Source: Leucoraja erinacea
Lineage: Eukaryota
Assembly: GCF_028641065.1 (NCBI RefSeq)
Contig: NC_073378.1
Span: 83,948,001-84,012,000 of the forward strand
Length of the DNA stretch: 64,000 bases
Direction of reading: 5' to 3'
Part shown: in pieces, positions 2,143-64,000 of the stretch
Layout of the letters: each line of letters opens with the position of its first letter
Position numbering within the stretch: position 1 is the first letter of the stretch
The notes under the pieces: generated by a model
What the model was told of the DNA's origin: nothing
Database searches by the model: none
The model's input: only the letters and a program-made list of their open reading frames with translations
Made by a program: the position numbers and the translations under genes

Positions 2143-2226
2143 AACTGCAGTAATTCAGACAGTCTCGTGTTGTAGAGTTAGACTTTAGCCCCAACAACAT
2201 GAAACTACCTAAATCACACATCAGTT
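2143..2226 (-). ncRNA. mir-196: pre-miR-196 hairpin (HoxA-linked, miR-196b position)
   Basis: Reverse complement of 2190-2211 is TAGGTAGTTTCATGTTGTTGGG (mature miR-196-5p). A complementary 3p arm CTACAACACGAGACTGTCTGAA follows, with AACTG/CAGTT closing the stem. It lies just downstream of HoxA10, as expected for miR-196 upstream of Hox9. Confidence 0.97.
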
Positions 2227-6146: not shown

Positions 6147-6906
6147 CTTTTGTTTCTTTCTCAGGAGAGTTTTTGCTGCTTTCTGAATGGACTGGTGAAG
6201 ATTCTTCGTTTGGTGAAGATGCCGGAGCCTCTGCCTCTTCTCTCTCCGAGCCGCAGGTTAAATGGCCGGGGGATGTCCCCTCGCTTCCTTTTCTCCCCAA
6301 TTCACTCGGGGTCGAAGCTGAAGAAGGGGGTGTTCCAAAACGGATCTGGGACTGAGGCACGAACGGAGAGGCCCCAACCTGCCCAGTGTTGGTATAAAGT
6401 GTCTGTTTGGTTGTCGGGTAGGCTTGGGACAGACGGAAATAGCCGGGCACAGGAACCCCGCCGCTAGTAGTAGTGTCAGTATTGGAGCACGATTCTGATG
6501 TTAGCCTTGGAAACGTGGAAAGATCTGTTGCTGCCGCGCTTTTTGGACATTTCTCAGAATCATATAAGCAATATGCATTTTCTTCTTTGATATTCTGGGG
6601 GAAGGAACATGCTGCTACTTGCTGGGTTGCAGGTTGCTCCATGCGACAGGACCTGGGAGGATCTGACCAGACCTCCATCCCGCTCATGTAGGGATGAGAA
6701 GTCAGGACCATACTCTGAGAGTTGTTCTCACTGCGTTTGCTCAGAGATGGGAAAAGTCCACAGTTTTGGATGCCGTATGATAGATCAGAGGCAGGCGGCA
6801 GGTATACGCTGTTGTTGGGGTAATAGGTTCCTTCCCCGCCACGGCCCACGCTGATCAGAGAATCTACTAAAAAGGAGTTTGCAGCCGGGCTGTCTGAGCA
6901 TGACAT
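6147..6906 (-). CDS. hoxa10: HoxA10 exon 1
   Basis: Starts MSCSDSPAANSFLVDSLIS and contains CSFPQNIKEE and VPVPGYFRLSQAY. Donor AAAG|GTAGGT at 6146. 760 nt + 275 nt = 345 codons including the stop. Confidence 0.97.
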
Positions 6907-18094: not shown

Positions 18095-18327
18095 TCAGAG
18101 CAATGGATTCGTAGTGTAATATTGAAGGCGGTCCCTGTTCAACTTCTTTTCCTTCATCCTCCTGTTCTGAAACCAAATTTTAACTTGGCGGTCGGTTAAA
18201 TTGAGCATGCGGGAAAGTTGTAGGCGCTTCTCCTTATTGATGTAGACACTGAAAAAAAATTCTCTCTCCAGCTCCCTGATCTGGTACTTGGTATAGGGGC
18301 ATCTTTTTTTACGTGTACGCTGGCCAC
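18095..18327 (-). CDS. hoxa11: HoxA11 exon 2 (homeodomain; not listed in the ORF track)
   Basis: Hand translation: [76 protein letters not shown]. Acceptor CAG at 18330-18328, phase 1. Confidence 0.98.
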
Positions 18328-19374
18328 CTGTAACAGGTAAACAGTACGTTAAAACATTGATAAGTCAGAGTAGCCAATGTTTTACTCAGGAGCAACATAT
18401 ACTTTGCTGTAATTCGGAGCACCTCTACATAATTCATACTTTTTACACAGCAATATCTACCACCAATGACGATATACAGAAGACTTCGCGAAAGCTTTAA
18501 AGCGCATTTTAACATGTTGAATGGGTCTTGAAACATAAGATGGCTGCCTCGGTTACCATAATGCTTGTGGAACTTCTGAAGTTAAAGCTGTGATACTCCC
18601 TTTCCAAATAGTATTTGAAATTACAAAAGGGCTTTCCGTACCCAGGAACTACCCGCATTTGGAAGATAAATGATTTTTACAGATGAAACGCCCGAGTATG
18701 AGAGCATTAAAGACAGAAAATAAATGAAGAGCACGACGTTTTATTTAATTTAGGTTGTTAAATCTAAAAGGATTTGAAGCATGACACAATCGCCCTGTCA
18801 TTATAAAGGTGCTGGGAACAGGAATTGGGTTTCTTAAGGGAGGGGGCTTTGTTGTGTAGATATTCCGTGTTGTAAAAGTCGACATAAGCATGATCCAGAA
18901 GTACTGCTGTAGCGTTAAAGCTGTGCTTATCGCACGTCCAGCTATAAAATGTGATTATTAAATAAAATATGGTCACTCAATCTGAAATAAGTTTTTATGA
19001 TGGAAAACCCTGTGCTTAAGGTATTGTACTATTTATGTTGCTGTTAAAAATGTCATTTTACCCTGTTATGTTTTAAAGCGGTTACTTATGGAATTGAATA
19101 CAACCTATAAATAGAGGTTTTGTGTCAACACGTGTTTTATAGAATTCGTGTGCTGTATTCATACACGCGTAGATCACAACGGCCAAAAGGCTATTTTTCA
19201 TGAATGCACACCTAATCATTTAAATGACCATATTTTAATCCAAATTTCACATTTAGAGGTGCTAGTTGAGCTATTTTAATGCAGGGATTGGCTGGTGTTA
19301 TTTCACGGCCAATTTCAGAGCGGAACACGTGATCCTGTCATTTATTTAAAAAAAAGTTTTGTTGGGAAATCTAC

Positions 19375-19440
19375 AGGCCATCCATAAACCCCCTTATATG
19401 CTTATAAAACAGCACATAAAATTTTTAACAGCAGCGCGCG
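19375..19440. promoter_or_regulatory. HoxA11 intron cluster of Cdx/AbdB-type sites
   Basis: CCATAAA, TTATAAAA and CATAAAA within 50 bp near the 5' end of the intron. Confidence 0.55.
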
Positions 19441-19485
19441 AGATCGCAAAACTTTCCTTCATAAGTAGGCACTGATTCTACCTAC

Positions 19486-20095
19486 TAGAGTTGCTGCTTT
19501 TTTCCTCATTGTTGCCGGAAGAAGATTCCGGGCTGCTGCTCCCGGGACTCGTCTCCTTCTCCACCGACACCCTGGAAGTCTCCGAACTTGAAATTGCCGC
19601 AGACGGCACTTTACCTGGGCTCTTCTCCCCGCAATACTCCGACTGCTGATTCTCACTAGAACCGTAGGCAGTCTCGAAGAACTGATCAAATCCTTGCGGC
19701 AGGACACCGTTCCTACCCACCGGGTTGTAGAAGCTGGAAGTCGCGTTGGAACTGGGGTGGTAAACGCTGGCGCTATTTTTCATTAACATCTCGCCCATGG
19801 TGCTGGCAGGCAGGCATTCTCTGTGCATCAGCTCCTCTGCGGAATAGCAGTGGGGGAGATTGCTTCTGTGATGCCACTTATTGGAAGGATCGATGGCATA
19901 GTCTCTGAAGGTAACTTCCCGCACAGGTTGAACCTGGGGGATATTAGACGAGTAAGAATATGTCATGGGACGAGAAGCCGGTGTCTGAGGTAAAAATGAA
20001 GGCAGGCTGGAGAAATCCGGACCGGAGACATAATAGGTACAGCTAGGCAAATAAAGGTTAGAGCCACAAGGAACCCGCTCATCAAAATCCATCAT
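19486..20095 (-). CDS. hoxa11: HoxA11 exon 1
   Basis: [39 protein letters not shown]...[12 protein letters not shown]...[19 protein letters not shown]. Donor A|GTAGGT at 19485. 610 + 233 nt = 281 codons including the stop. Confidence 0.97.
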
Positions 20096-20199
20096 CGCTT
20101 TCTTGGGGTCCCCTAGCGCAAGAATAGCTTGCATTCGCACAGCTAAACATGGTCCTTAGATGCTGCTGCCTCTTTGAAGCTGATCCGCGGAGTAAAAAT

Positions 20200-20290
20200 T
20201 TGGAAACGTAAGCTGACGTGGAAATGTATCTCCATACATCGCAGGAACCAGCCGGTCATGTGACCAGATGCCTGGAGAAATTGACATGCA
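20200..20290 (-). promoter_or_regulatory. HoxA11 proximal promoter
   Basis: CRE-like TGACGT at 20214-20219 and USF-type E-box GGTCATGTGACC at 20254-20265. Confidence 0.6.
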
Positions 20291-26100: not shown

Positions 26101-27104
26101 CTCGCATATGTCCATTAAACCTGCAGTACGGCAAAATGTATTAATCCTTTCACCAAGTGGAGTAAATAAAATCAAAGTGAAATGCTGAAAATACGTGAAG
26201 TGTCAACAACAGGACAGGCCCGCGACTGCGTGCGTTAAGGATGGAGCCAGCAATGTTATATCATGAAAGTTAAAATTAACGAATTTCAACTGCATTCATT
26301 CTGATGTGGATGATGCTTTGTTGATGAGTTGTGTAAATTAATTTGAATGACTGTAGTTCTGAATGCATTTTATTTTCTACCCCTAATTGCAGAACGTAAT
26401 AAATGTTTGAAGCATAATGGGCAAAGTTCTAACCACTATATGCTATTTCAGTTTTTTGAAGAACACTTGCTCACAGAGCTGTGAACTCAGCGACCATTGG
26501 AACTTATATTTGATCTGTTTACACTCAGCTACCTGTCCCATTTGGAGAAGGGAAGTGAACATTTCACTGCTAATTCATGAACTATTTTAAAACAACGTAC
26601 ATTAGAATGAAGTATTTCCACTTTCCGAATTGAGATTCAAAAACATAACACTTCACATTAATAAATATGAGGACTAAGCTTCCAAGTTGAATACTAGGAG
26701 GAGCATTGCTATCTGTATTATATTTTGTCAAACATCAAAGAACACCACTACCCTACTAGACAGCTGATTTGCAAGACGATATATAAAAATGTATAATGTA
26801 AAAACATCCAATATTTCATAATCTTTACTGGAAATTAGATTTACTTTCAGAAACACTGTGCAAATATGTTTTAATAAATTATGTTTCCTTAGGTATCATA
26901 CAAATTATTCAGGGCATGCATTTGGCGTTGGAATGAATAATAATGTAATTGAATATTAACTTACCATTATTGTTCAGCAAAGAAAATCTCGTACATTGAA
27001 CAGTTAGGTTTAATTTCAAAGAAATTCTAAATTAGAATATAAAATACACTTTAAACATTGTGGCTGTGTGAATTTATATTGTTAATGCAATTACACTGAT
27101 ATAA

Positions 27105-27196
27105 TTGAAGAAGGGTCTCGACCCGAAACGTTAATATTTCCTTCTCTCCAGAGACGCTGCCTGTCGCGCTGAGTTCAGCATTTTGTGTCTATCTTC
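27105..27196 (+). mobile_element. Short dispersed repeat (Penelope-like terminal repeat with hammerhead-like core) inside the cluster
   Basis: TTGAAGAAGGGTCTCGACCCGAAACGTT...CAGCATTTTGTGTCTATCTTC. The same family occurs at 39401, 39578, 41150, 53111, 55325 and 60028. Confidence 0.75.
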
Positions 27197-30100
27197 CGTT
27201 TATATATATACTTTGTTTTAATTTAATATCGGACACTATTTCAGTGAAGTGAAATATGAACATGAAGTGAAATTATATTTTATATATAAATATTATATAA
27301 TATATACAATATATTCCTCTGAATATCTCATAATATATAAGACGCATGTTATCTTAATCGGTCCAAATGTTATTTGGAAATTGTACAAAATTGCACCAGT
27401 TGGTTGTACAAGAACGAATACATTCTACACACGAAATGCCATTTGACCTTATTTACCAAACATAATAATGTAACCGTTATTAATTCAAATGCCGCAACTT
27501 TGTGAGTGCATATGATTAAACAAATATTTTATGTTAATCTATAAAATGTTTGTTTCCTTGTTGATATGTATCTATTACAATGCAGAGAGTAATTGTTTTA
27601 AATTATTATGCTGTGGTACCCCACAAACCGCAAACTCAAATGTCTGGGTATGTATGTGATATAATGTTCTGTCTTATGAAGATGTTTCGTTGTTTGCACC
27701 ATACACTAGTTACGTAACTGACTTAACATTTGAATGCCATTACATATTATTTACAAAGAGTTCCATATTACGATCTATATTGTCAGCAATGTCAAACCAA
27801 ATATATGTTATCTTTGTACTTATGCATAGTCCATTATAAATGCCTAACCTAGGCAGTCGCAGGCGTGCCCTGTTGTTGACATTCAACGTGATTTCAGCGT
27901 TTCAGTTTAGTTTTATTTATTCTAAAACAACGAACAATTTGCTTATGTGCATTGAAGTACCGTTGATCCAATTATAATATAAAACGACCACACAAATGCT
28001 TTATTTCATTGCCCATTTGAATAATACATTCAGTTTCGAATTGGAGTGGCGCAATAGTATTTAATAGTGTTTTTAAAGTTAATTCAACAATTTTGAAGAC
28101 AATTTGGCGTGATTTGCAAAGAGCCACGTACGCAAGTTAGGTACAGCGTACATTTATTTAAAATCCAATTCAATTAATTCTGTTCATGTTTGAATTCGGT
28201 ATGGATTTGACATTACACATTCGATTGGAGTAATTCTCAATAAATATTTAAAATATATTTGGGGGGTTATTATTGCGAAAAGTAATAGTTTTGTATACAC
28301 ATTAATTTCACGATGGCAAGTTATGCTTAACAGTGAGCGCAAAGAAAAACGGGCTTTGCACGATTCATACAAATGTACGCAAGTGTAGCTACTGCCTGCA
28401 GTGCATATTGTTTTCCCTTAGAATTTTTAATACGACTTCAAATCGATTGAAGAGAAGGAATAATTCAATCAAACAATTTTACCAAGACAAATGAGCATGC
28501 CGACTGCAGGCAGAACATACAAAATCGGTGATGTGAATGGATACATACTTCTAAAAAGTGGAAATCAGCGAAATAAATCCAAATCTCTGCCTTAATACGG
28601 CTTTGGTTTTTGGAAATGGCTTACAGATTTAATCGTGTAACGAGGGGCTCTGTTACAATTGTAGATTATGCCGCGTATAAATGTCTTTAAACATGATTCT
28701 TGGCGTTCAGCTTCGTGCATTAAATTATCATAATATATTTTTACTGACAGTCTGCAGTAACGCATGCGAAATTATCCCTAAGAACTAACCCAAGGTTGCT
28801 GGCGTTATTCCTTAAGGCAATTTTAGGGGGGGAATGCATTATCTTTTCCCAATAAATTATTTTATTCGCTCGGGGCTGCGCTGAATCCACTAGAAGTACA
28901 TTAGGTTACGATAATTTACGCAAAATATGTGAGGTTCACGGCGAATCATATGCACCAACAGAAGAGCGGAAGAGCCGAAGCTAAATGAACATTATGGAAA
29001 GCCAATTCTATGTTGTAGCATTGTTTTATGTTTGGTTATGATGATGTTAACGTTGACTGTATGGCAAATTTTGCTTGACTATATATTGTGCTATAAATAA
29101 CAAGAAATGGCGAGTCCCAAATCTGATAGTCTGACGAGATAAATCTGATTGTTTGAAGGGTACGAAGCACCATTGTTCTTGCATTTGAGATACTTAAGAC
29201 TGAAGCAAAACGGATAATAAACCGAAGTAAAAATTTGCCCAGAATGTATATATTTGGAGAAACTGATAACTGTTGGTTATACCTGCTTTGTCTGCATCAA
29301 TGATTACTGTTAGCTAATAACACAGTGTTTGGTTCTCATTTCCTCGTAAACGAAAAAAATCGCCTTTTTTTACACAAGATGCAGTAGAAAAGTATAATCT
29401 AATAATTAGACCAGCCTTGATCAGACACAATGTGGGTGGTTCTCCTCGAGTATTTCCCAACCAGCGCACGGATGAATGTTGCAATAGGATGTCGTGATTG
29501 GTTCGCTGCGTCATGTGATGAATGTAGTATTTTATAATCCCACGACATTTTGACAAATCAGCTTGCATGTTGCAAGCAGCAGCCCCCGAGTTGTTGATTC
29601 GTGTGCATTAGGAAAAAGGCACTAGAAAAATAAAGTATGGTTTAAGGTTCACTATTAGAAGTGCAACATTATTTAGATGTAAATGCAACAAAATAGATCG
29701 GAGACTTCAATAAATTTGCTTACCTCTCAAATAATAATTTCAAGGTAGACCACTTCCAAGAGACCACTCTCTGTAATATCCAAGATAAATCAGAGTACTC
29801 TGCATGACTGTGGAATTTATCTGTAATTCTATATTTTGAAATGAAAAAATGAGGAAATTAATATTTTTAGTGCAGATCAAGTTTTAGCTTTACACGTCCA
29901 CAGCCCAGCGAAAGATGGATTATGCAATGCCACACACAATTTCCTGTGCTTCCTATTTATAACGTATGTAGACTATATGCTTTAAAATTCTAAAAAATGC
30001 AGCATAAAATTCCTTACTCAAATATTGTGTAGAACAGCTCGGTAATCATTTTAGTTTTGCAAGAATAGAGGCGAAATTTCGCAAATATATGACCAGATAC

Positions 30101-30644
30101 AGTGTACCGAATATAAGTGAATAACCATTATATCCAGAGCAGTTACATACAGCTGTAGACAAAAGTGAAATGATGGTTACATCATAACAAACACATAAGA
30201 GATCGGCTGATCATAGATAACATAAAGTTGACTAAATGCCTTTTATACGGTTCATGAATGCTACAATCTTACAGCTTATTTGATCAGCCTATCTACTCTT
30301 TTTTTTTGGTTGCACAGGTTGAAATTTAGATGCAGCTAAAAGTTAATTTACAAAATTGTAGCCATATATCAATATTCATTTGCATTGTAAATTTAAGCTT
30401 TGGTGATGTTAGTAAATTACTAAAGCTTGGCTGAGCAATACTTAATTCATGATTAGTCATTGAAATTCAAACATTTAAAATAATTTAGCCGAACCTTTCC
30501 ACAATTTCGACAATACATAATACTCGGTACAGTTACTGACCTATGTTTGGTAGTCCTTGTTCAACTTTACATGCTCATTATTGAAACACCCACGTTCGGT
30601 TGGTTGTGTGTTCAAAGCCCTTATAAATGATTCTCCGCAGATGT

Positions 30645-30661
30645 AACAGTAGATGGCGTAC
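30645..30661 (+). promoter_or_regulatory. Candidate CTCF site downstream of HoxA13
   Basis: ACAGTAGATGGCGT. Confidence 0.4.
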
Positions 30662-31160
30662 TTGTTCTACATATACACCTCATGACTATTCATGAGCTGT
30701 TAATCGTCAAGGTCAAAGACTATCTGTTTTCGTCAAGGTCAAGGTTTAAACCTCCCCACCCCCATCGCTCTGCAACCAGAGCCAAGTAATGGCAGAAAAT
30801 GTATTTGTATTCTGAATATTTCAACGCGTTTAGTTTACTACACTAAAACATTCAGTATTTTAATACATGCTTAGATATAACCTAAAATATTTCCATCAAC
30901 ATCCCGAATCTTTATCTGGCGGTGATGTTTTCCTTGAAGAAAGGCAGCACATACTTGCTAAGACTTCTTATTTTTTTTGTAAGTTCCTTGGTTGTTTCTT
31001 AGAATGAAAGCTCTGTTTTCACACATCTTGAATAACTTGCCACACAACAGGAAGAAATCTAATTAGCCCATTTAAAAAAAACTTTTTTTTTGTTTTGAAG
31101 TTCTTAGCCGGTCTCATGTTTCTTCATAAAAAATATGCGACGCTGTAGTTTATGAAGACT

Positions 31161-32247: not shown

Positions 32248-32492
32248 CTAGCTGTTACTTTTCAGTTTGGTGAGGACTTTCTTTTCTTTGACTCGTCTGT
32301 TTTGAAACCAAATAGTGACTTGTCTTTCTGAGAGATTTGTTGATGCCGATATCCTCCTTCGCTTGTCCTTGGTGATGAATTTATTGGTAGCATATTCCCG
32401 TTCAAGTTCTTTTAACTGCACCTTGGTATAAGGCACCCTTTTCTTTCTTCCACGCCGAAAAGAGCTCGCATCCGAAGGATGAGAAACGACGT
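32248..32492 (-). CDS. hoxa13: HoxA13 exon 2 (homeodomain)
   Basis: [72 protein letters not shown]. Acceptor TAG at 32495-32493, phase 1. Confidence 0.98.
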
Positions 32493-32881
32493 CTATAAAG
32501 AAAATGAAACACACCTTTACTATCCCATGCCCGTCGACAGAAAAAAACACAGAGAATGTGGCTGGTGTCAAGTTCAACATCAGTGCGTGGAGAAACTACT
32601 GGGATTTATTTACTGAACTAAATGACATAACAGCAAATGTAATTTTAATGCGTAATAAGTTGAATGAATGATATTTTAAAATATATATATGTTTAGGCAG
32701 TACATTAAAACGTGAAAGGCATATTTATGTTGGGCACATCCGGAATATTATTTTTTAACTGTGGTTTAATGTATATATCTTTCAGTTACCCGTACGAATT
32801 TGCAAGTCAGACAGAATGCTTTCCCCCTTCATTGGACGGATTTCGGTTATGGGGACTACGTTACGTTTTATCAATATTTAC

Positions 32882-33530
32882 CTGGCAGACTCGACTTCCA
32901 GAGGTGGGTGGGTTGAGGTTGCTCTTTTGAACAGCAGACTTGACCGTTCCACCCGTTGGTAATAGCCCAGGGCTGGTAGCTCTCCATGGGTAATAATGTT
33001 TCGTGTCTCGGTTCTCCCGGGGCGCTGATCGTGGGGACAACAGGTACATCCAAATAGCTGGGCATGGGTTGGTATGGCCCCGCGTAGCCTTGATAGAAAG
33101 CAAACTCCTTAGCTCGGGTGGTGAATTCCTCGCCGGCGGACGTGTCCATATACTTGTCGGCAGGATAGCCAGACAAGGTGGAGGGCTGCGCACAGGACTT
33201 AATGCTGCTATGGTGGCTCATTCGGCATGGATAGTAACTGCTCCCAAAGTATCCATAAGGAAGAGAAGCACTGGAGGAAGTTTGAGCAGCTGGACAAGGA
33301 CTACATTGTTTGACAGGTTCGACAATGCCAGAGGCTGGTAGTTCACTCGACGAGTAGGCAGAACTGGGGGCTAAGGATGCTGGATGGGCCATCAAATTCC
33401 TGCATTGGTTTGCGGTGAAGTTCCCTCCTGAAAATCCATCCATGCTTTTATTAATTTCATCCAAATTATTGTCGTAGACGAACATCACCGTGTCGATCCA
33501 GCGGGGATGAAGTATCACTGACGCTGTCAT
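32882..33530 (-). CDS. hoxa13: HoxA13 exon 1
   Basis: [21 protein letters not shown]...[11 protein letters not shown]...YYPCRM...KEFAFYQGY...YLDVPVV...YQPW. Donor CCAG|GTAAAT at 32881. 649 + 245 nt = 298 codons including the stop. No poly-Ala tracts. Confidence 0.97.
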
Positions 33531-33609: not shown

Positions 33610-33682
33610 CAGCATTGACGCGCCAGTGTCGCTGAAAACCGCCCCCTCATTGGCTGCCACTTTCCCACGTGATATGCAAAGT
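33610..33682 (-). promoter_or_regulatory. HoxA13 proximal promoter
   Basis: E-box CACGTG 33666-33671, CCAAT 33653-33649, GC box 33639-33644, TGACG ~33616. Confidence 0.6.
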
Positions 33683-39300: not shown

Positions 39301-39400
39301 GCTGCACCTTTTATACTTTAAACCTAACGACAATGTCATTTTTTTCGTCTCTTCGTAAACATTCGTCAAAGGTACATAAAAGGACATTTTCTGCGTAACA

Positions 39401-39477
39401 ATAGACACAAAAAGCTGGACTAACTCAGCAGGACAGGCAGCATCTCTGGAGAGGAGGAATAGGTGACCCTTCTTCAG
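39401..39477 (-). mobile_element. Copy of the Penelope-like short repeat with an internal deletion
   Basis: ATAGACACAAAAAGCTGGACTAACTCAGC...GGTGACCCTTCTTCAG is the reverse complement of the 27105 family, with stem II/GAAA deleted. Confidence 0.75.
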
Positions 39478-39577
39478 ATTTTGTTTTGGAACTGCAGTTC
39501 ATAACTGCATTATTAGTTATAGTTAGTTGGAAGCTAACGAGCCTTTTCTTCTCTCGCGCACATCTTCCCGAAATCAG

Positions 39578-39770
39578 AGGTACACAGAAATGCCGGAGAA
39601 AATCAGCGGGTGCAGCAGCATCTATGGAGCGAATGAAATAGGCGAAAGAAGGGTTTCGGCCCGAAACGTTGCCTATTTCCTGCGCTCCATAGATGCTGCT
39701 GCACCCGCTGAGTTTCTCCAGCATTTTTGTGTACCTTCGATTTTCCAGCATCTGCAGTTCCTTCTTAAAC
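39578..39770. mobile_element. Head-to-head pair of the Penelope-like repeat (66-bp inverted arms)
   Basis: 39578-39643 is the near-perfect reverse complement of 39671-39736. Confidence 0.85.
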
Positions 39771-41195
39771 ATCCCGAAATCGGAATTCGGTCTGCCATTA
39801 CAAATTGTTACTCCCATTTAAAAAAAGATTGGACCCCTTTAAGACATATTTTCGCTTTTGCTTCTTATTCTAATACCAACCCTCCCTGGTTTGTTCGTCT
39901 GCTATCCTGCTCAAACGTCACCATTACCACACCCTCGCCCATACCCCAGCAAACAGAGACAAATTCACCATAATCGCTACTAATTTTGCATGTTCGTTTT
40001 GTCGTTGTACTTCAGGGGTCAGAAAGCAGGTTTCCTCGACAGAACTGTTGGGCTTTGCCATCTGGAAATTGATATTATGGATTCCCTACTTTTAACTGAG
40101 TTCTTGGGTGGCCAGGCCAGGCCAGGGAGAATCATTGCTTCGAGCTGCGAATGAATAAGACTTAATTATTTGATTTAATTGGTCTACTGTCTTATAGACT
40201 TTTACTTAGCATGATTGTGTCTAATGTATAATAGGATCGTCACTGAATTGAATGGAAAAATGCATTTCACTGTACTTAGGTGTACATGACAATAAAGTAC
40301 AATTAAACCATTGTCATATTCACTATGACGTTTATAATTCCTACCTAAAAATTCATAACCAGCGATTACATGGTAGTGTTTAATGCATTATTTTGCGTCA
40401 ATGGGCCAAAATGTACAATATGTGCACTTTTGATAAACAAAGAAGGTTTATCAGAGTTGTAACTATCAGCTTTGAGGTACCGAATCTCAATTTTCTATAA
40501 ACATATAAACTAATTGCTAAAACTCCTTAGGTAGTTTTACATACATATATGTGGAGTTCTGTCTTCCTGTCTACACTCATAATAAACTCAAGGGAAACGA
40601 TTCAAATATTATGGAAATTTAAAAAAATCATCCATAGGTTAAGACCCATATTTTATAAATATGGAACATCAATAAATTTAAGTATATACGAATTACGATT
40701 AAAAAAGAAAAAAATGTTTTTTGTGATGTTGTGCAACTGGAATTCACACTATATTAAATCAACATTTTATGCATTGTATACATGTATTAAGTGCGAAGCT
40801 AGACTAAACGCCAAAGGTGCTTTGGTATAATTCATTGCAAATGTCTTGGACGATATTAGGACACGTCATTCATTTGGTACTGTTGCATTAGCATTGATTT
40901 TAGTACACAATGTACATTAATTGCAAATATTTAATATATTGATAACTATGTTTCTTAACTTTAGTTGCTGTCGCTTTTTTCCTATACACTATATTGGTAA
41001 GCTAGATATATGAACTAGTTTTGGACATTAATATATCTTGAAAATGTCATATCTAATATTTAACTCCCGGTTATTGGAACGCATATGTGTGACTGCAAAA
41101 TCCAGAATGGACACCTGCGATATATATATATATATAGATATATACATTTTCCAGAGATGCTGTCTGTCCAGCCTTTTGTGTCTATCTTCGGTTCA

Positions 41196-51062: not shown

Positions 51063-52958
51063 CAATGCACTCCATAATGTTTGGCACAGACCCATCATTT
51101 ATTTATTTGCCTCTGTATTCCACAATTTGAAATTTGTAATAGAAAAAAAATCACATGTGGTTAAAGTGCACATTGTCAGATTTTATTAAAGGGTGTTTTT
51201 ATACATTTTGGTTTCACCATGTAGAAATTACAGCTAAATTTATACATAGTCCCCACATTTCAGGGCACCATAATGTTTGGGACACATGGCTTCACAGGCG
51301 TTTTTAATTGCTCAGCCTCCTTAATGCAGGTAGAAGAGAGCTCTCAGCACCTAGTCCTTCCTCCAGTCTTTCCATCACCTTTGGAAACTTTTATTGTTGT
51401 TTATCAACATAAGGTCCAAAGTTGTGCCAATGAAAGTCAAAGAAGCCATTATAAAACTGAGAAACAGGAATAAAATTGTTAGAGACATCAGCCAAACCTT
51501 CGGCTTAACAAAATCAACTGTTTGGAACATCATTAAGAAGGAAGAGAGCACTGGTGAGCTTACTAATCGCAAAGGGACTGGCAGGTCAAGGGAGACCTCC
51601 ACAGCTGATGACAGAAGAATTCTCTCTATAATAAAGAAAAAACCCAAACACCTGTCCGACAGATCAGAAACACTCTTCAGGAGTCAGGTGTGGATTTGTC
51701 AATGACCACTGTCCGCAGAAGGCTTCATGAACAGAAATACAGAGGCTACACTGTAAGATGCAAACCACTGGTTAGCCGCAAAAATAGGATGGCCAAGTTA
51801 CAGTTTGCCAAGAAGTAGTTAAAAGAGCAACCACAATTATGGAAAAAGGTCTTGTGGACAGATAAGACGAAGATTAACATATCAGGGTGATGGCAAGAAC
51901 CAAGTATAGAGGAGAGAAGGAACTGCCCAAGATCCAAAGTATACCACCTCATCTGTGAAACACGGCAGTGGGGATATTATGGCCTGCGCATGTGTGGCTG
52001 CTGAAGGTACTGGCTCACTTATCTTCATTGATGATACAACTGCCGATGGTAGTAGCATAATGAATTCTACAGGAAGACAATAATCCTAAACATACTGCTA
52101 AAGCAACAAAGGATTTTTTCAAAGCTAAATAAATTGTCAATTCTCGAGTGGCCGGCAATCAGCCGATCTGAACCCAATTGAGCATGCCTTTTATATGCTC
52201 AAGAGAAAACTGAAAGGGACTAGCCCCCAAAACAAGCATAAGCTAAAGATGGCTGCAATACATGCCTGGCAGAGCATCACCAGAGAAGACACCCAGCAAC
52301 TGGTGAAGTCCATGAATCACAGACTTCAAGCAGTCATTGCATGCAAAGAATATGCAACAAAATACTGAACATGACTACTTTCATTTACATGACTACTTTC
52401 ATTTACATGACATTGCTGTGTCCCAAACATTATGGTGCCCTGAAGTGGGGGGATGATCTATGTATAAACACTGCTGTAATTTCTACATGGTGAAACCAAA
52501 ATGTATAAAAATGGCCTTAATTAAAATCTGATATTGTGCACTTTAACAAATGTGATTTTTTAAATTACAAATCTCAAATTGTGGAGTACAGAGGAAAATA
52601 AATAAATTATGTCTTTGTCCCAAACATTATGGATGGCACCAGTGGTGTAGCGTGGGGGGGTGGCAGTGGGACGGTTGCCCCGGGCACTAAATTTTTAGGG
52701 GCGCAAATAAAATTGTTGAATAAATTTTTTAAATAAAATTAAGAGGCCCGGGGAGCCGTTGGACTGAGGAGAGGTTACCTGGAGCTGTGAGTATAAAAAC
52801 AGCGCGGGCCAGGCCGCCGCTGCTGCCCCAGCTCCGAGTTCTGGTCGCCGCTGCCGCTGTCCCAGCCGCCGCTGCCTCTGCCCCTCCCGCCCCTGCCCCG
52901 CCCCCGCCCCCGCCCCCCCGCCCCCGCCCGCCCCCCCCCGCCCCCGCCCCCCCCCCCG

Positions 52959-55730: not shown

Positions 55731-57180
55731 TACATGTACAATGAAATTAAAAGCTGCTCGTACTCAGTGCATACATATAATTTAGTACAAAAAACAAGAA
55801 AAACAGAAAAACAAAAACAGAAGGGAGAATGGGGGGGGGGGGGGGGGGGATAGGTGCACAATTCTGCGGCGCTATATACATATATACAGATGGAAGTCCG
55901 GGTGTTGGGCTGTGAAGTCAGTGCATGTGTGAATTAATTAAGAGTAGTTATAATTTTCGGAAAACAACTATTTCTGAGTCTATTTGTCCTGGATTTGATG
56001 CACCTATAGCGCCTTCCAGAGGGCAGCAGGTCGAACAGTCCAAACGCAGGATGGGAGCTGTCTTTGATGATATTCTTTGCCCTGCTAAGGCAGCGGGAGG
56101 TGTAGATATCCATCAGGGAGGGGAGAGGGCAACCAATGATCTTCTGTGCTGTCCTAGTTACCCTCTGAAGCCTCTCCCTGTCTGCCATGGTGCAGCTGCC
56201 ATACCATGCTGTAATGCAGTATGTCAGCAGGCTCTCGATGGACGAGCGGTAGAAGGTCAGCAGCAGGTTAGAGTCCAGGTTGTGCTTCCTGAGGACCCTC
56301 AGGAAGTGCAGCCGCTGCTGAGCCTTCTTGATGACCGCTGTCGTGTTGTCCGTCCGGGAGATGTCAGCAGCGATATGGACGCCGAGAAACCGGAAGGTGT
56401 TGACCCTCTCCACACACTTGCCGTTGATGTGTAGGGGGACTAAGTCGGTGCTGTGCCTCCTGAAGTCGACAATGAGCTCTTTTGTTTTCCTGGTGTTCAG
56501 AGCCAGATTGTTTTCTGAGCACCAGGTTGTCAACTTCAGGACTTCCTCTCTGTAGGCTGCCTCGTCTCCCTTTGAAATAAGTCCGACTACAGTAGTGTCG
56601 TCAGCAAATTTGACGATGCGGTTGTTGTTGTGGGCCGGACTACAGTCGTAGGTGTAGAGACAGTATAAGAGGGGGCTTATACACAGCCCTGTGGGGAACC
56701 GGTACTCAACCTGCGAGTGGAGGAGAAGTGGGGGCCGAGTCTCACAGTCTGGGGCCGGTTGGTGAGGAAATCTTTTATCCAGGCACATGTGAGAGTGGGG
56801 AGGCCGAGAGTGACCAGTTTACCAATGAGAATGTCCGGAATGATTGTATTGAAAGCTGAGCTATAATCCACAAAGAGCATCCGGACGTAGCTCTGCCCCT
56901 GCTCCAGATGGCTCAGCACAGAGTGGAGAGCTACGGTAATGGCGTCACCCGTGGATCTGTTTTGGCGATAAGCGAATTGGTGGGGGTCGAAGTCTGGTGG
57001 TAGATAGTCCTTGATGTGCTGGAGGACCAATCTCTCGAAGCACTTTGTGATTACCGGAGTGAGGGCCATAGGGCGGTAGTCATTAAGGCTGGTGATGGGA
57101 GACTTCTTCGGCACTGGGACAATTGTGGCTGATTTTAGGCAGGACGGAATAACTGCCTGGTCCAGGTAGAGGTTGAAAGT
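55731..57180 (-). mobile_element. Rex1/Babar LINE reverse transcriptase, one frameshift
   Basis: [45 protein letters not shown] / [34 protein letters not shown]. Frameshift near 56680. Confidence 0.95.
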
Positions 57181-57409
57181 GTGGAGCAGACATTAAAAAA
57201 TGGCAANNNNNNNNNNNNNNNNNNNNNNNNNNNNNNNNNNNNNNNNNNNNNNNNNNNNNNNNNNNNNNNNNNNNNNNNNNNNNNNNNNNNNNNNNNNNNN
57301 NNNNNNNNNNNNNNNNNNNNNNNNNNNNNNNNNNNNNNNNNNNNNNNNNNNNNNNNNNNNNNNNNNNNNNNNNNNNNNNNNNNNNNNNNNNNNNNNNNNN
57401 NNNNNNNNN

Positions 57410-60340: not shown

Positions 60341-62850
60341 TAGTAAGATTAAACGAGAACTTACCAGTTTGAAGTTTGATCTGTATTTTACGAGGAGTTA
60401 CGATGAGGGATTACGTGAAGAACCACTCCAGCACGCATGTGCGACATACTTCAAAGCTGCGGTGTGGAATCACAGAAACAACACAATAATTGAATAAACA
60501 TAGTAAAGACAAGGAGAACTAAGTTACCAGTTGATCTCTATAATTGAGGGTTTTGAGCGGAGGGCACGTAATCCCTCATCGTAACTCCTCATAAAATACA
60601 GATCAAACTTCAAACTGGTAAGTTCTCATTTAATCTTACTGTTTTACTTCGGAGTCATGTGAGTGACTACGTGAAGATTTTAAAGCTCTGTGATTTCAAA
60701 CCAGGTAACAGTTCATACTTCACTCACTGTCGAAGTCATTCAAGGGAGGAAGTATGTTATCGTAATCAACCATGAATCTGTTTGTAAAATAATAATGGTG
60801 TTATTAACAATAACAAGACCAAAATGCTCCCCCGGGCTTAAATTATATATTTTTTGCAGATTCTAATACTTTTTCTGCAAACGATACAGGTTCTGCCAGC
60901 GGCTTGTTATAAAAGTTTGGAACGTTTTTTCCCTAGACCACCCCACTGTAGCCAGGATGTGGTCCATAGGCATGTCCATCCTCTTAGTCACCGATGTGGA
61001 TGCTGCCCTGGTGGAGTAAGATTTATACACGTTAGTATTTACTCCAGCAACTCCCAGTACCTGCTTGAGCCACGAGATAGTTTGGCTCGTCACCCGACCA
61101 TGAGGTTTCTTGTGGCTGACCCATAAGGCTTTTTCTCTCCCTCGAGGATTTCTTATTGTGTCGATGTAGTTCAATAAGTGGGTCATGACACATAACCGTG
61201 GTTGAGGTGGGTATGCCCGGAATTCCATGACTAGACCTGATGTTCCTGGTCTGCTCTGTTTGACCAGCCCCCAAATGGTAAATGGAACACGGTCTGGTGT
61301 TATAACCATATTGTCCAATCGTAGTAGATGGAGGAACTGGACTCTTTGTGCTGAGACAAGGCCATCAGCATGACCGTCATCAGGGTGGGCTGTTCCAGGG
61401 TGAGGGACCTGGCTGGTGACCATCCCCTAAGGTACGTCAGAACCACACTGACATCCCAGATTTGGGTGTACCTAGGTCTGGGGATTAGAGTTGAATGTGC
61501 CTTTCCTGAATTTGATCACCAGTGGGTGGTACCCTATGGCCTGTTGTCCTGGTGCCTGAGTTAAGTAGGCTGACAGAGCACTTCTGGCTGTGTTGATGGC
61601 GCAGTAGCTGAGTCCTTCATTGTGGTGAAGACTTGCCAGGAACTCCAGTACAGGTTTTGTTGTAGTTGAATATGTAGTTCCTGTATTTGAACAGTATCTT
61701 CCCACTTCTTGATGTTTGCCAAGTATGTTCCCTTGTGGATATGTGATGGGATGCTATCATCATGTCGATAGTGCTGTCTGACAATCCAGGCCCAACAGTG
61801 GTCTTCCCAATTCTGCAACCCAGACCCAGTAAATGGTCTTTTCAAATCTGAAACCCAGTAGTTTAATTTATCGTGGCATGGATGGCTTATGTCTGGAACT
61901 GGGTGAGTTGATAAGTCTGGGCTATTGGGAAAATCATTAGGGTTTTGATGACCATGTCGAGGACCACTGGGAACCATCACTGTGGGTTTGCGTAGTACCC
62001 GACTGATGAGGCCGTAGTACCTGACTGATGAGGTAGAAAAAAGGGGAGAACATAGAGATTAGATTCCCCCTCAGTTCAGCGGGAATGTATCCGTTGCTGC
62101 TGCCTCAAAGTTTGGTTTCATGCGACATACATCGGTACGTGGTGATTCAATTGGAATACAGGGAAATCGATATCTGGTGTTCCATATTGCTTTGTAATTT
62201 CAGCAAATACTTTGGTTTAATATGTCTGTTTACAGTATTTAGTTCACCTGGTAGGTAAGTTTGCTGATGGTCGAATATGTTTGACGACATACGGTTACCA
62301 ATTGTTAAATAAATTGTCAAATGATATCGATTTTATTCTGCCCAAGTGGTTTGGTATATGCCACCACTGTGATGTTGTTAATTTATAAACAAACATGCAA
62401 AATGGTGCACTACTGAACAATATGCTTTTACCAATAGAACGTACTCAATATTTCCAACTAGGTTTTATGCCCAGTATCTATAGTGATGACGACTCCAGAT
62501 TAGTCCATTTGCCACCATGTTCTGGGTATGGGTATTTAGTTTAAACACTAGCACCTTAGCTTTAATGGAAAGGTTCAAGTTGAGTAGCTGGTAATGCTGC
62601 TACTGACTACCAATTACTCTAGCCACTAGTTGAATGGTTGGTTGATTGTTACCATTAATTGTTACAGGTTGTGTCATATGCTGACTCCCCTTATGGCAAT
62701 GTTATAGATGAGTGGGTAGAGTTACTTGAATACCAGATAGTCAATAGTTGTGGATGGTGTCAACGTAGATCTATCTGGATAGTATGACAGAGCCCAGGCT
62801 AAATAAGTTTTAGAAGCTAATGCTGTTGATTAGCTATTCCCATGGATAGT
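60339..62850 (-). mobile_element. DIRS-type tyrosine-recombinase retrotransposon, degraded 3' part
   Basis: YR motifs SAQRVQ, YSTRAASTS and ILATVGWSREKTF. N-terminal domain LSYCAINTARSALS. PDID-type remnant ~62165. 79-bp inverted repeat 60339-60417 / 60565-60643 (ITR/ICR). The upstream boundary is approximate. Confidence 0.88.
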
Positions 62851-64000
62851 CTATTGTTAATATCATAGGGACATCTATACCGAGCCTGCAGACTGGAACC
62901 AGGAATAGGCAACAACACCAGGACCTTGTCACCTGGAGAAAAATTCCTACTAGAAGCCTTCCTGTCGAACGAGTCCTTCATCCTAGACTGAGCAGAAGCA
63001 AGATTACCCATTGCCAGTTTGCATGCCCTCCTCAGTCTAGAGCGAAAAGTACAGACGTGGTCTAAAATACTACGTTTTGTATCCTCCTGCAACCATTTCT
63101 CCTTCAGGACCCTCAACGGACCACGTACAGTATGCGCGAACACCAGGTCAGCAGGACTGAACCTTAAAGACTCCTGCACGACCTCACGCACCGCAAACAT
63201 AACTAGATGAACCCCCTCATCCCAGTCTTTTTCAAACTCCAGGCAGTAAGTCCTCAACATAGATTTCAAAGTCTGGTGAAACCGCTCAAGAGCCCCCTGG
63301 CTCTCAGGATGATACGCACTGGAGTAACAATGCTTAATATCTAACAACTTCATTACCTGACCAAAAACCTTCGACATGAAGTTGGAACCTTGGTCACTCT
63401 GCACAACCTTGGGCAAACCGAACAACGAAAAAAAATTTAGTGAGAGACTTCACAATGGTAGGGGCAGTAATTCTACGCAAAGGGACCACCTCCGGAAAGC
63501 GGGAAGACGCACACATAATTGTCAATAAAAACTTGTTGCCCACCCTTGTCCGAGGTAGAGAACCCACACAATCAACTAGAATCCGCTCAAACGGCTCACC
63601 GACCACAGGGATTGGATATAAAGGCACAGGAACAATCGATTGGTTCGGCTTCACTGCCACCTGGCAAATGTGACTTCACCTGCACTGCTGTTTCACGTCC
63701 TTTTTCAACCCTGGCCAAAAACAATTCCGTAAGATATGGTCATACGTCTTACTGACCCCCAAATGTCCACCCAGAGGACCATCATGAGCCAAACAGAGTA
63801 TCTCGTCCCTATACCGACGAGGCATCACAATCTGATCAACCATGCTCCAATCATCATGCCCAGATATATCCAAGGGAGACCACTTTCGCATCAGTAAGCC
63901 CTCCCTCAGAAAATACCCCTTTGCTGTGGAATCCATATCCCCCTGAGGCACCACGCAGTCGAACAGATCAGATAAACCTGGATCACTCTTTTGCTCCTCA
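62850..64000 (-). mobile_element. Gypsy LTR retrotransposon integrase (frameshifted), running off the window
   Basis: HHCC region AHDGPLGGHLG...CFWPGL, core PFERILVDCVG, QSDQGSNF, YHPESQGALERFHQTLK, and a GPY/F-like end PGDKVLVLLP. Confidence 0.93.

Follow-up and report, generated by a model that had tools for sequence, protein, structure and literature searches.

In a composite promoter type described from ENCODE data, USF1/2 or MAX at an E-box and NF-Y at a CCAAT box prefer an E-box-CCAAT distance of 10-12 bp, according to the part of the source used here (PMC4889920). The element reported below resembles this type in placing a CACRTG-type box 10 nt from a CCAAT box, and because that spacing is the one NF-Y and USF/MAX prefer, such a module is best regarded as a general promoter device without Hox specificity. 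A second group of related systems consists of slots in Hox clusters whose gene has been lost. Hox14 pseudogenes are named for chimaera in the available text of one study (PMC3707753), and the caecilian pseudogene of Hoxd12 occupies such a slot and keeps its 5′ footprint fp19 (PMC3091776). In the excerpted text of PMC3091776, both this pseudogene and the coelacanth pseudogene of Hoxd13 retain alignable coding remains, unlike our candidate, which has no trace of exon 1 or of a homeobox. A third parallel is the non-coding transcription of the A13-A11 interval represented by mammalian HOXA11-AS, as far as the partial text goes (PMC3541083). A plus-strand start at our locus, itself putative, would run along the cluster in the direction that HOXA11-AS takes, but the candidate lies 9.4 kb from the start of HoxA11 and the A13-A11 gap has no Rfam match.

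With respect to HoxA12 itself, the accessible portion of a study of chondrichthyan HoxA clusters reports no trace of the gene and warns that conservation in these clusters is broad (PMC2746220), while another paper cites three elements common to all four Hox clusters without listing them in the portion used (PMC3595034). Judged by titles and the beginnings of abstracts, none of the papers listed for HoxA12 describes a remnant of it; the classic footprint papers on shark, bichir and chimaera may list the element, and both the module and its neighbouring element may already be catalogued there. To our knowledge, HoxA12 is absent from the described HoxA clusters of jawed vertebrates.

Results

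The posterior HoxA cluster and its paralogues

The window, a stretch of 64,000 nucleotides from Leucoraja erinacea (contig NC_073378.1, positions 83,948,001 to 84,012,000), carries the posterior HoxA genes HoxA13, HoxA11 and HoxA10 on its minus strand:

32248..33530, minus strand: HoxA13, two exons, start at 33530; the neighbour upstream of the module
33649..33671, minus strand: HoxA13 proximal promoter module, E-box-N12-CCAAT, used as a comparison site
18095..20263, minus strand: HoxA11 with its promoter E-box (20263-20255), start at about 20095; the neighbour downstream of the module
start at 6906, minus strand: HoxA10, the third HoxA gene in the window

The gap between HoxA13 and HoxA11 is 11.9 kb long. 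A homeodomain search of the same genome found three Hox clusters, on C2, C7 and C27, which their predicted proteins assign to A, D and B, respectively, and no HoxC cluster; loss of HoxC in elasmobranchs is also stated in the available part of PMC3707753. Exon 1 of the genome's own HoxD12 shares 89-93% identity with shark proteins and 79% with chimaera, which marks the genome as that of an elasmobranch.

Several further features of these regions were recorded. A mir-196 precursor lies between HoxA10 and HoxA9 (window 2147-2220, minus strand) and is the sole Rfam match in 1-41000. An interspersed repeat at 27068-27290 and 39397-39800, one copy of which falls within the A13-A11 gap, recurs many times in the HoxB and HoxD regions, and open reading frames upstream of the cluster (55937-57192, 60866-63449 and 51355-51702) look by eye like reverse transcriptase, integrase or recombinase, and Tc1-type transposase fragments. 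In HoxD, the HoxD13 homeobox is read in two frames that split at an A-run (G000:C7:21791948-21792122, L002), probably a homopolymer assembly error, and a HoxD14-like gene with a long first-exon ORF (G000:C7 about 21804690) and a homeobox fragment (21803207-21803365) lies upstream of HoxD13.

An E-box/CCAAT module without a gene

Between HoxA13 and HoxA11 the minus strand carries an E-box followed by a CCAAT box. An earlier note on this DNA had described both motifs and their spacing correctly, and it was also right that the HoxA13 promoter has the same E-box-to-CCAAT order (E-box-N12-CCAAT at 33671) and that HoxA11 has the same E-box (at 20263). The features of the site are as follows:

29510..29518, minus strand: USF-type E-box TCACATGAC, from the sequence
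29496..29501, minus strand: CCAAT box CCAATC, a predicted NF-Y site, 10 nt past the E-box hexamer, from the sequence
29530..29538, either strand: AT-rich, putative TATA-like stretch, from the sequence
29290..29650, no strand assigned: single-copy non-coding block with apparent local constraint that contains the module, from comparison with related species

Read on the plus strand, the module becomes a reversed CCAAT box, then the E-box, then the TATA-like stretch. The stretch has one match in its own genome, which does not prove rarity, and local GC and CpG rise at the module.

The two motifs might have come together by chance, without a function of their own, in intergenic DNA that evolves slowly, a reading that we consider improbable. 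In 1000 shuffles of the A13-A11 gap, at least one loose pair arose with probability 0.03 when the sense strand alone was counted and 0.06 when both strands were, which leaves room for chance, as does the broad conservation of non-coding DNA in chondrichthyan HoxA clusters, which weakens footprinting according to the accessible text of PMC2746220. Against this, a stricter pattern that includes the extended USF-type flanks, defined post hoc from the site itself, gave P = 0.002 in 1000 gap shuffles, and the spacing of the pair is the modal one in Hox clusters (see below); the rise in GC and CpG also speaks against chance. The pair in the gap exceeds chance expectation moderately.

Comparison with related species bears on the same question. 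The E-box has no change listed in any of four related species, but divergence is too low for this to be informative. In relative E, 7 of the 361 letters in 29290-29650 are changed and gaps are absent, compared with 111 of 2340 letters in the flanks (Fisher p 0.012), a result drawn from one contig of depth 3.4 that is about 96% identical, with the interval picked after relative G had been seen; in relative G, 4 of 190 letters differ compared with 32 of 600 outside (p 0.07). Given the depth of the E contig and the choice of interval after G, this constraint is modest support, although fewer substitutions and gaps than in the flanks argue against a chance arrangement. Contigs of relative G also omit 119 and 712 bases immediately upstream of the module (29604-29724 and 29833-30546) while keeping 29415-29604 and 30546-30639.

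The module is a recurrent feature of Hox promoters

We scanned 371 kb covering parts of the three clusters (111 kb of A, 110 kb of D and 150 kb of B) for E-box-N10-12-CCAAT and found 21 matches; 30 shuffles gave 2.6 on average and 6 at most, and a wrong-order control gave a single match. The modal spacing of 10 nt, which is that of the candidate, occurs in 14 of the 21 modules. Fourteen also lie at Hox proximal promoters, within about 80-185 bp of the start codon: A13, A9, A7, A4, A3, A2, A1, D9 (twice), D4, D2, B13, B7 and B4. The candidate differs from these in that no coding exon follows it; its minus-strand order is that of the A13, B13, A9, D9 and A3 promoters, and its plus-strand order that of promoters of paralogy groups (PG) 1, 2, 4 and 7. 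The proposal of the earlier note that this is an orphan Hox-type promoter module is supported by these counts. Across the whole genome, the exact motif pair shows no enrichment (18 matches versus 29 for the reversed control).

Seven of the 21 modules have no gene, and about 2-3 of these seven are expected by chance. Four of them, three between PG7 and PG6 and one in the HoxD7 slot, align to paralogous copies and are for that reason taken to be real, while an orphan in the A2 intron and another between B9 and B8 may be chance occurrences. The PG7-6 orphans, which are CCAAT/E-box elements, are mutually alignable in A, B and D (C2:83931087, C27:5318970 and C7:21749955), with scores of 11065 and 6867 that indicate strong conservation, and since both flanking genes are present in A and B, they are no relics. 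We take the PG7-6 element to be the 'four-cluster sequence'. The orphan in the HoxD7 slot (C7:21752671; about 21752570-21752700, L026) can be aligned with the promoters of A7 and B7 (p 0.002) over a region corresponding to the promoter and 5′ leader of the Hox7 type, with no coding trace (z 1.0) and no D7 or D6 homeobox there. Orphaned Hox promoters do therefore survive, recognisably in that case. The PG7-6 and HoxD7-slot orphans are like the candidate in being gene-less E-box/CCAAT modules in a Hox cluster; they align strongly to other clusters (p 0.002), whereas the candidate aligns to none, and from these alignments the HoxD7-slot orphan appears to be a clearer relic of a lost-gene promoter than the module between A13 and A11.

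A shared intergenic element places the module in the Hox12 slot

A second conserved feature lies between HoxA13 and the module:

30647..30749, minus strand: conserved element with a pair of TGACCTTGAC motifs and then a CTCF-like core; paralogues lie behind HoxD13 and HoxB13
30646..30659, plus strand: putative CTCF-like motif, from a consensus scan allowing 2 mismatches and from the three-way alignment

The element matches the HoxD13-D12 gap at 70% over 108 nt (blastn, E 7e-7), and in a tiled comparison with HoxD, where it was the best of 78 tiles, it scored 3150 against a shuffle maximum of 2073. The HoxD copy is at G000:C7:21789294-21789398, and a HoxB copy lies behind HoxB13 (G000:C27 about 5214920-5215060; p 0.002). 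All three copies carry the TGACCTTGAC motifs and the CTCF-like core in one orientation in the three-way alignment. We presume the TGACCTTGAC motifs to be nuclear-receptor-like. The HoxD copy sits 2.77-2.87 kb before the HoxD12 start and by position matches horn shark footprint fp17, given as 2.78-2.93 kb before Hoxd12 in the excerpted text of PMC3091776; an identification of this copy with RXI was ruled out, RXI being fp18 in that text. Positions of CTCF sites are conserved between paralogous mammalian clusters, according to the available parts of two reports (PMC8559674; PMC10335938).

By alignment, the element appears to be a positional anchor for the Hox13-Hox12 interval, with the module in the right slot: it lies on the cluster strand between Hox13 and Hox11, past the 13-12 intergenic element, as would suit the position that the earlier note had proposed for HoxA12. 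The distance from the element to the CCAAT box is 1.15 kb for the candidate and 2.69 kb for HoxD12, but another 9.4 kb separates the candidate from HoxA11.

Comparison with the HoxD12 promoter and others

This position invites a reading that we regard as possible but doubtful: HoxA12 would have been lost before the split of sharks and bony fishes, and its proximal promoter, the module, would have been retained as a working element for regulation after the coding part was gone. The order Hox13, shared CTCF-like element, sense CCAAT box is that of HoxD, and in the HoxD12 promoter the CCAAT box is preceded, at 12 nt and in the candidate's orientation, by a degenerate E-box. Precedent comes from the HoxD7-slot orphan, which aligns to A7 and B7 with no coding remnant, and from the caecilian Hoxd12 pseudogene, for which fp19 is still listed in the excerpted text of PMC3091776.

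Direct comparison is less favourable. The earlier note had set beforehand, as the finding that would count against it, the lack of a significant alignment to Hox12 5′ regions; in comparison with the genome's own HoxD12 only, the genome having no HoxC cluster, no alignment was found over 200, 250 or 400-450 nt (p 0.84, 0.79 and 0.95). True paralogous promoter pairs align in 14 of 18 cases, although the four that do not (B13-D13, A9-B9, D9-B9 and B8-D8) leave room for an unalignable relic. When sequences were anchored at the CCAAT box, the first 60 nt past it aligned weakly to HoxD12 (p 0.022), but this signal was exceeded by that of the unrelated A3 promoter (p 0.009) and was gone at 100 nt (p 0.12) and 180 nt (p 0.32), lengths at which the A13-B13 pair reaches z 9.5. 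On the upstream side of the E-box, a similarity to the promoter of HoxD11 (when anchored, p 0.004 over 15 nt and 0.03 over 25 nt, with six promoters compared; absent against A11) was set aside as post hoc.

The corresponding slot of HoxB contains a near-match, a perfect palindromic E-box followed by a CCAAT box with one mismatch, 5.2 kb behind the HoxB13 homeobox (C27:5218487, L006). It would fit a HoxA12 relic and gives p 0.001 when anchored, but this value is driven by the selected motifs, and beyond them the near-match resembles neither the candidate nor HoxD12. Among 50 promoter comparisons, the best were reverse-strand matches (B4 z 3.9, A13 z 3.5). Together with the plus-strand TATA-like stretch, these matches make an antisense start as plausible as a sense start.

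The proposed Hox12-like peptide

The earlier note had also read a Hox12-like N-terminus downstream of the module, echoing a HoxD12 start with LYRAG:

29314..29430, minus strand: proposed Hox12-like frame; a chance open frame by HMM scores and by a frameshift in relatives

The open frame that it placed about 70 nt downstream is there: it starts with TTG at 29430, 71 nt past the CCAAT box, reads LCLIKAG...GDFFRLRGNENQTLCY* and ends with a stop at 29314. It forms the tail of an 84-aa ATG ORF starting at 29568, in a gap that holds three ATG ORFs longer than 60 aa. The full claim, in which some 35 initial codons of HoxA12 survive along with its promoter, would be in keeping with L-R-G-N-x-x-Q, which is common to the frame and to HoxD12 and stands about 150 nt from the CCAAT box here and about 165 nt in HoxD12, and with a comparison against coelacanth HoxD12 at cheap gap costs, in which 9 of 1242 intergenic peptides match or beat the candidate (shuffle p 0.014). 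With BLOSUM62 and standard gaps, however, between 35 and 621 of the 1242 peptides equal or beat it across six targets. HMMs of Hox12 starts (n = 10, 20 and 146) score it at -1.0, -0.8 and -0.3 bits, against 56, 90 and 86 bits for the genome's own HoxD12, and give it a rank of about 130-160 in a set of 1176 pieces from the six-frame translation of the gap. Homology of the peptide to Hox12 was rejected on tblastn, pairwise BLOSUM62 and all three HMMs.

What the peptide echoes is, moreover, a derived form. The genome's own HoxD12 starts MCEHNLLNSG, LYRAG is found in 4 of 123 HoxD12 starts (those inspected being mammalian), and ten proteins that we presume to be HoxC12 start M-G/S-EH-N/S-L-L/V-NPG. 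In relatives B, C and D, three of four compared, a 1-nt deletion at 29353 parts LIKAG from RLRGNENQ, and the Cys codon is Ser in three of four (C, D and E); with a 4-nt insertion at 29352 in relative G, the frame is broken in four of five relatives and intact in one. The open frame and the cysteine are therefore no evidence, though a fossil needs no frame. No homeobox remnant was found between A13 and A11 by tblastn (best E 0.42) or nhmmer (best E 5.1), and the homeodomain HMM reached 4.9 bits at best among 781 pieces, against 80 for A13. Even the HoxD7-slot orphan, a true one, kept no coding trace. On these comparisons the survival of a coding part seems very improbable and already largely refuted; the protein-fossil claim should be dropped, and the peptide resemblance appears to be chance.

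Discussion

The motifs, their spacing, the enrichment of the module at Hox promoters, its position, an apparent local constraint and the lack of support for the peptide are direct observations. Interpreting them, we lean towards the module being a gene-less copy of E-box-N10-CCAAT that is independent of HoxA12, likely regulatory and without a protein remnant. The existence of PG7-6 orphan modules outside lost-gene slots counts for this reading; against it count a position and orientation that fit a Hox12 promoter, the lack of genome-wide enrichment of the exact pair and the 2-3 of seven orphans expected by chance. The claim that the promoter and 5′ end of HoxA12 survive keeps one part, an orphan element in the right slot, and loses its coding part.

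For an independent element, the sequence would suggest a mode of action. The module would have arisen or been reshaped apart from HoxA12, in the manner of the PG7-6 orphan of A, B and D. NF-Y would occupy the CCAAT box and a bHLH dimer of the USF/MAX type the E-box; binding cooperatively, they would open the chromatin and create a promoter-like site near the CTCF-like boundary element. Within the A13-A11 gap, this site may then start a transcript that is either non-coding or alternative, or boost neighbouring Hox promoters as a short-range enhancer.

If the module is such an independent orphan, it would add one more regulatory element to a region known for antisense transcription and CTCF boundaries, a result useful as annotation and unsurprising. 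If it is instead a relic of HoxA12, it would preserve in the DNA a trace of a gene missing from the described HoxA clusters of jawed vertebrates and, together with the HoxD7-slot orphan and the possible copy in the HoxB12 slot, would indicate that in Hox clusters promoters outlast the coding sequence of genes that are lost, supporting the view that what preserves such promoters is regulation at the level of the cluster and not the gene to which each belongs.
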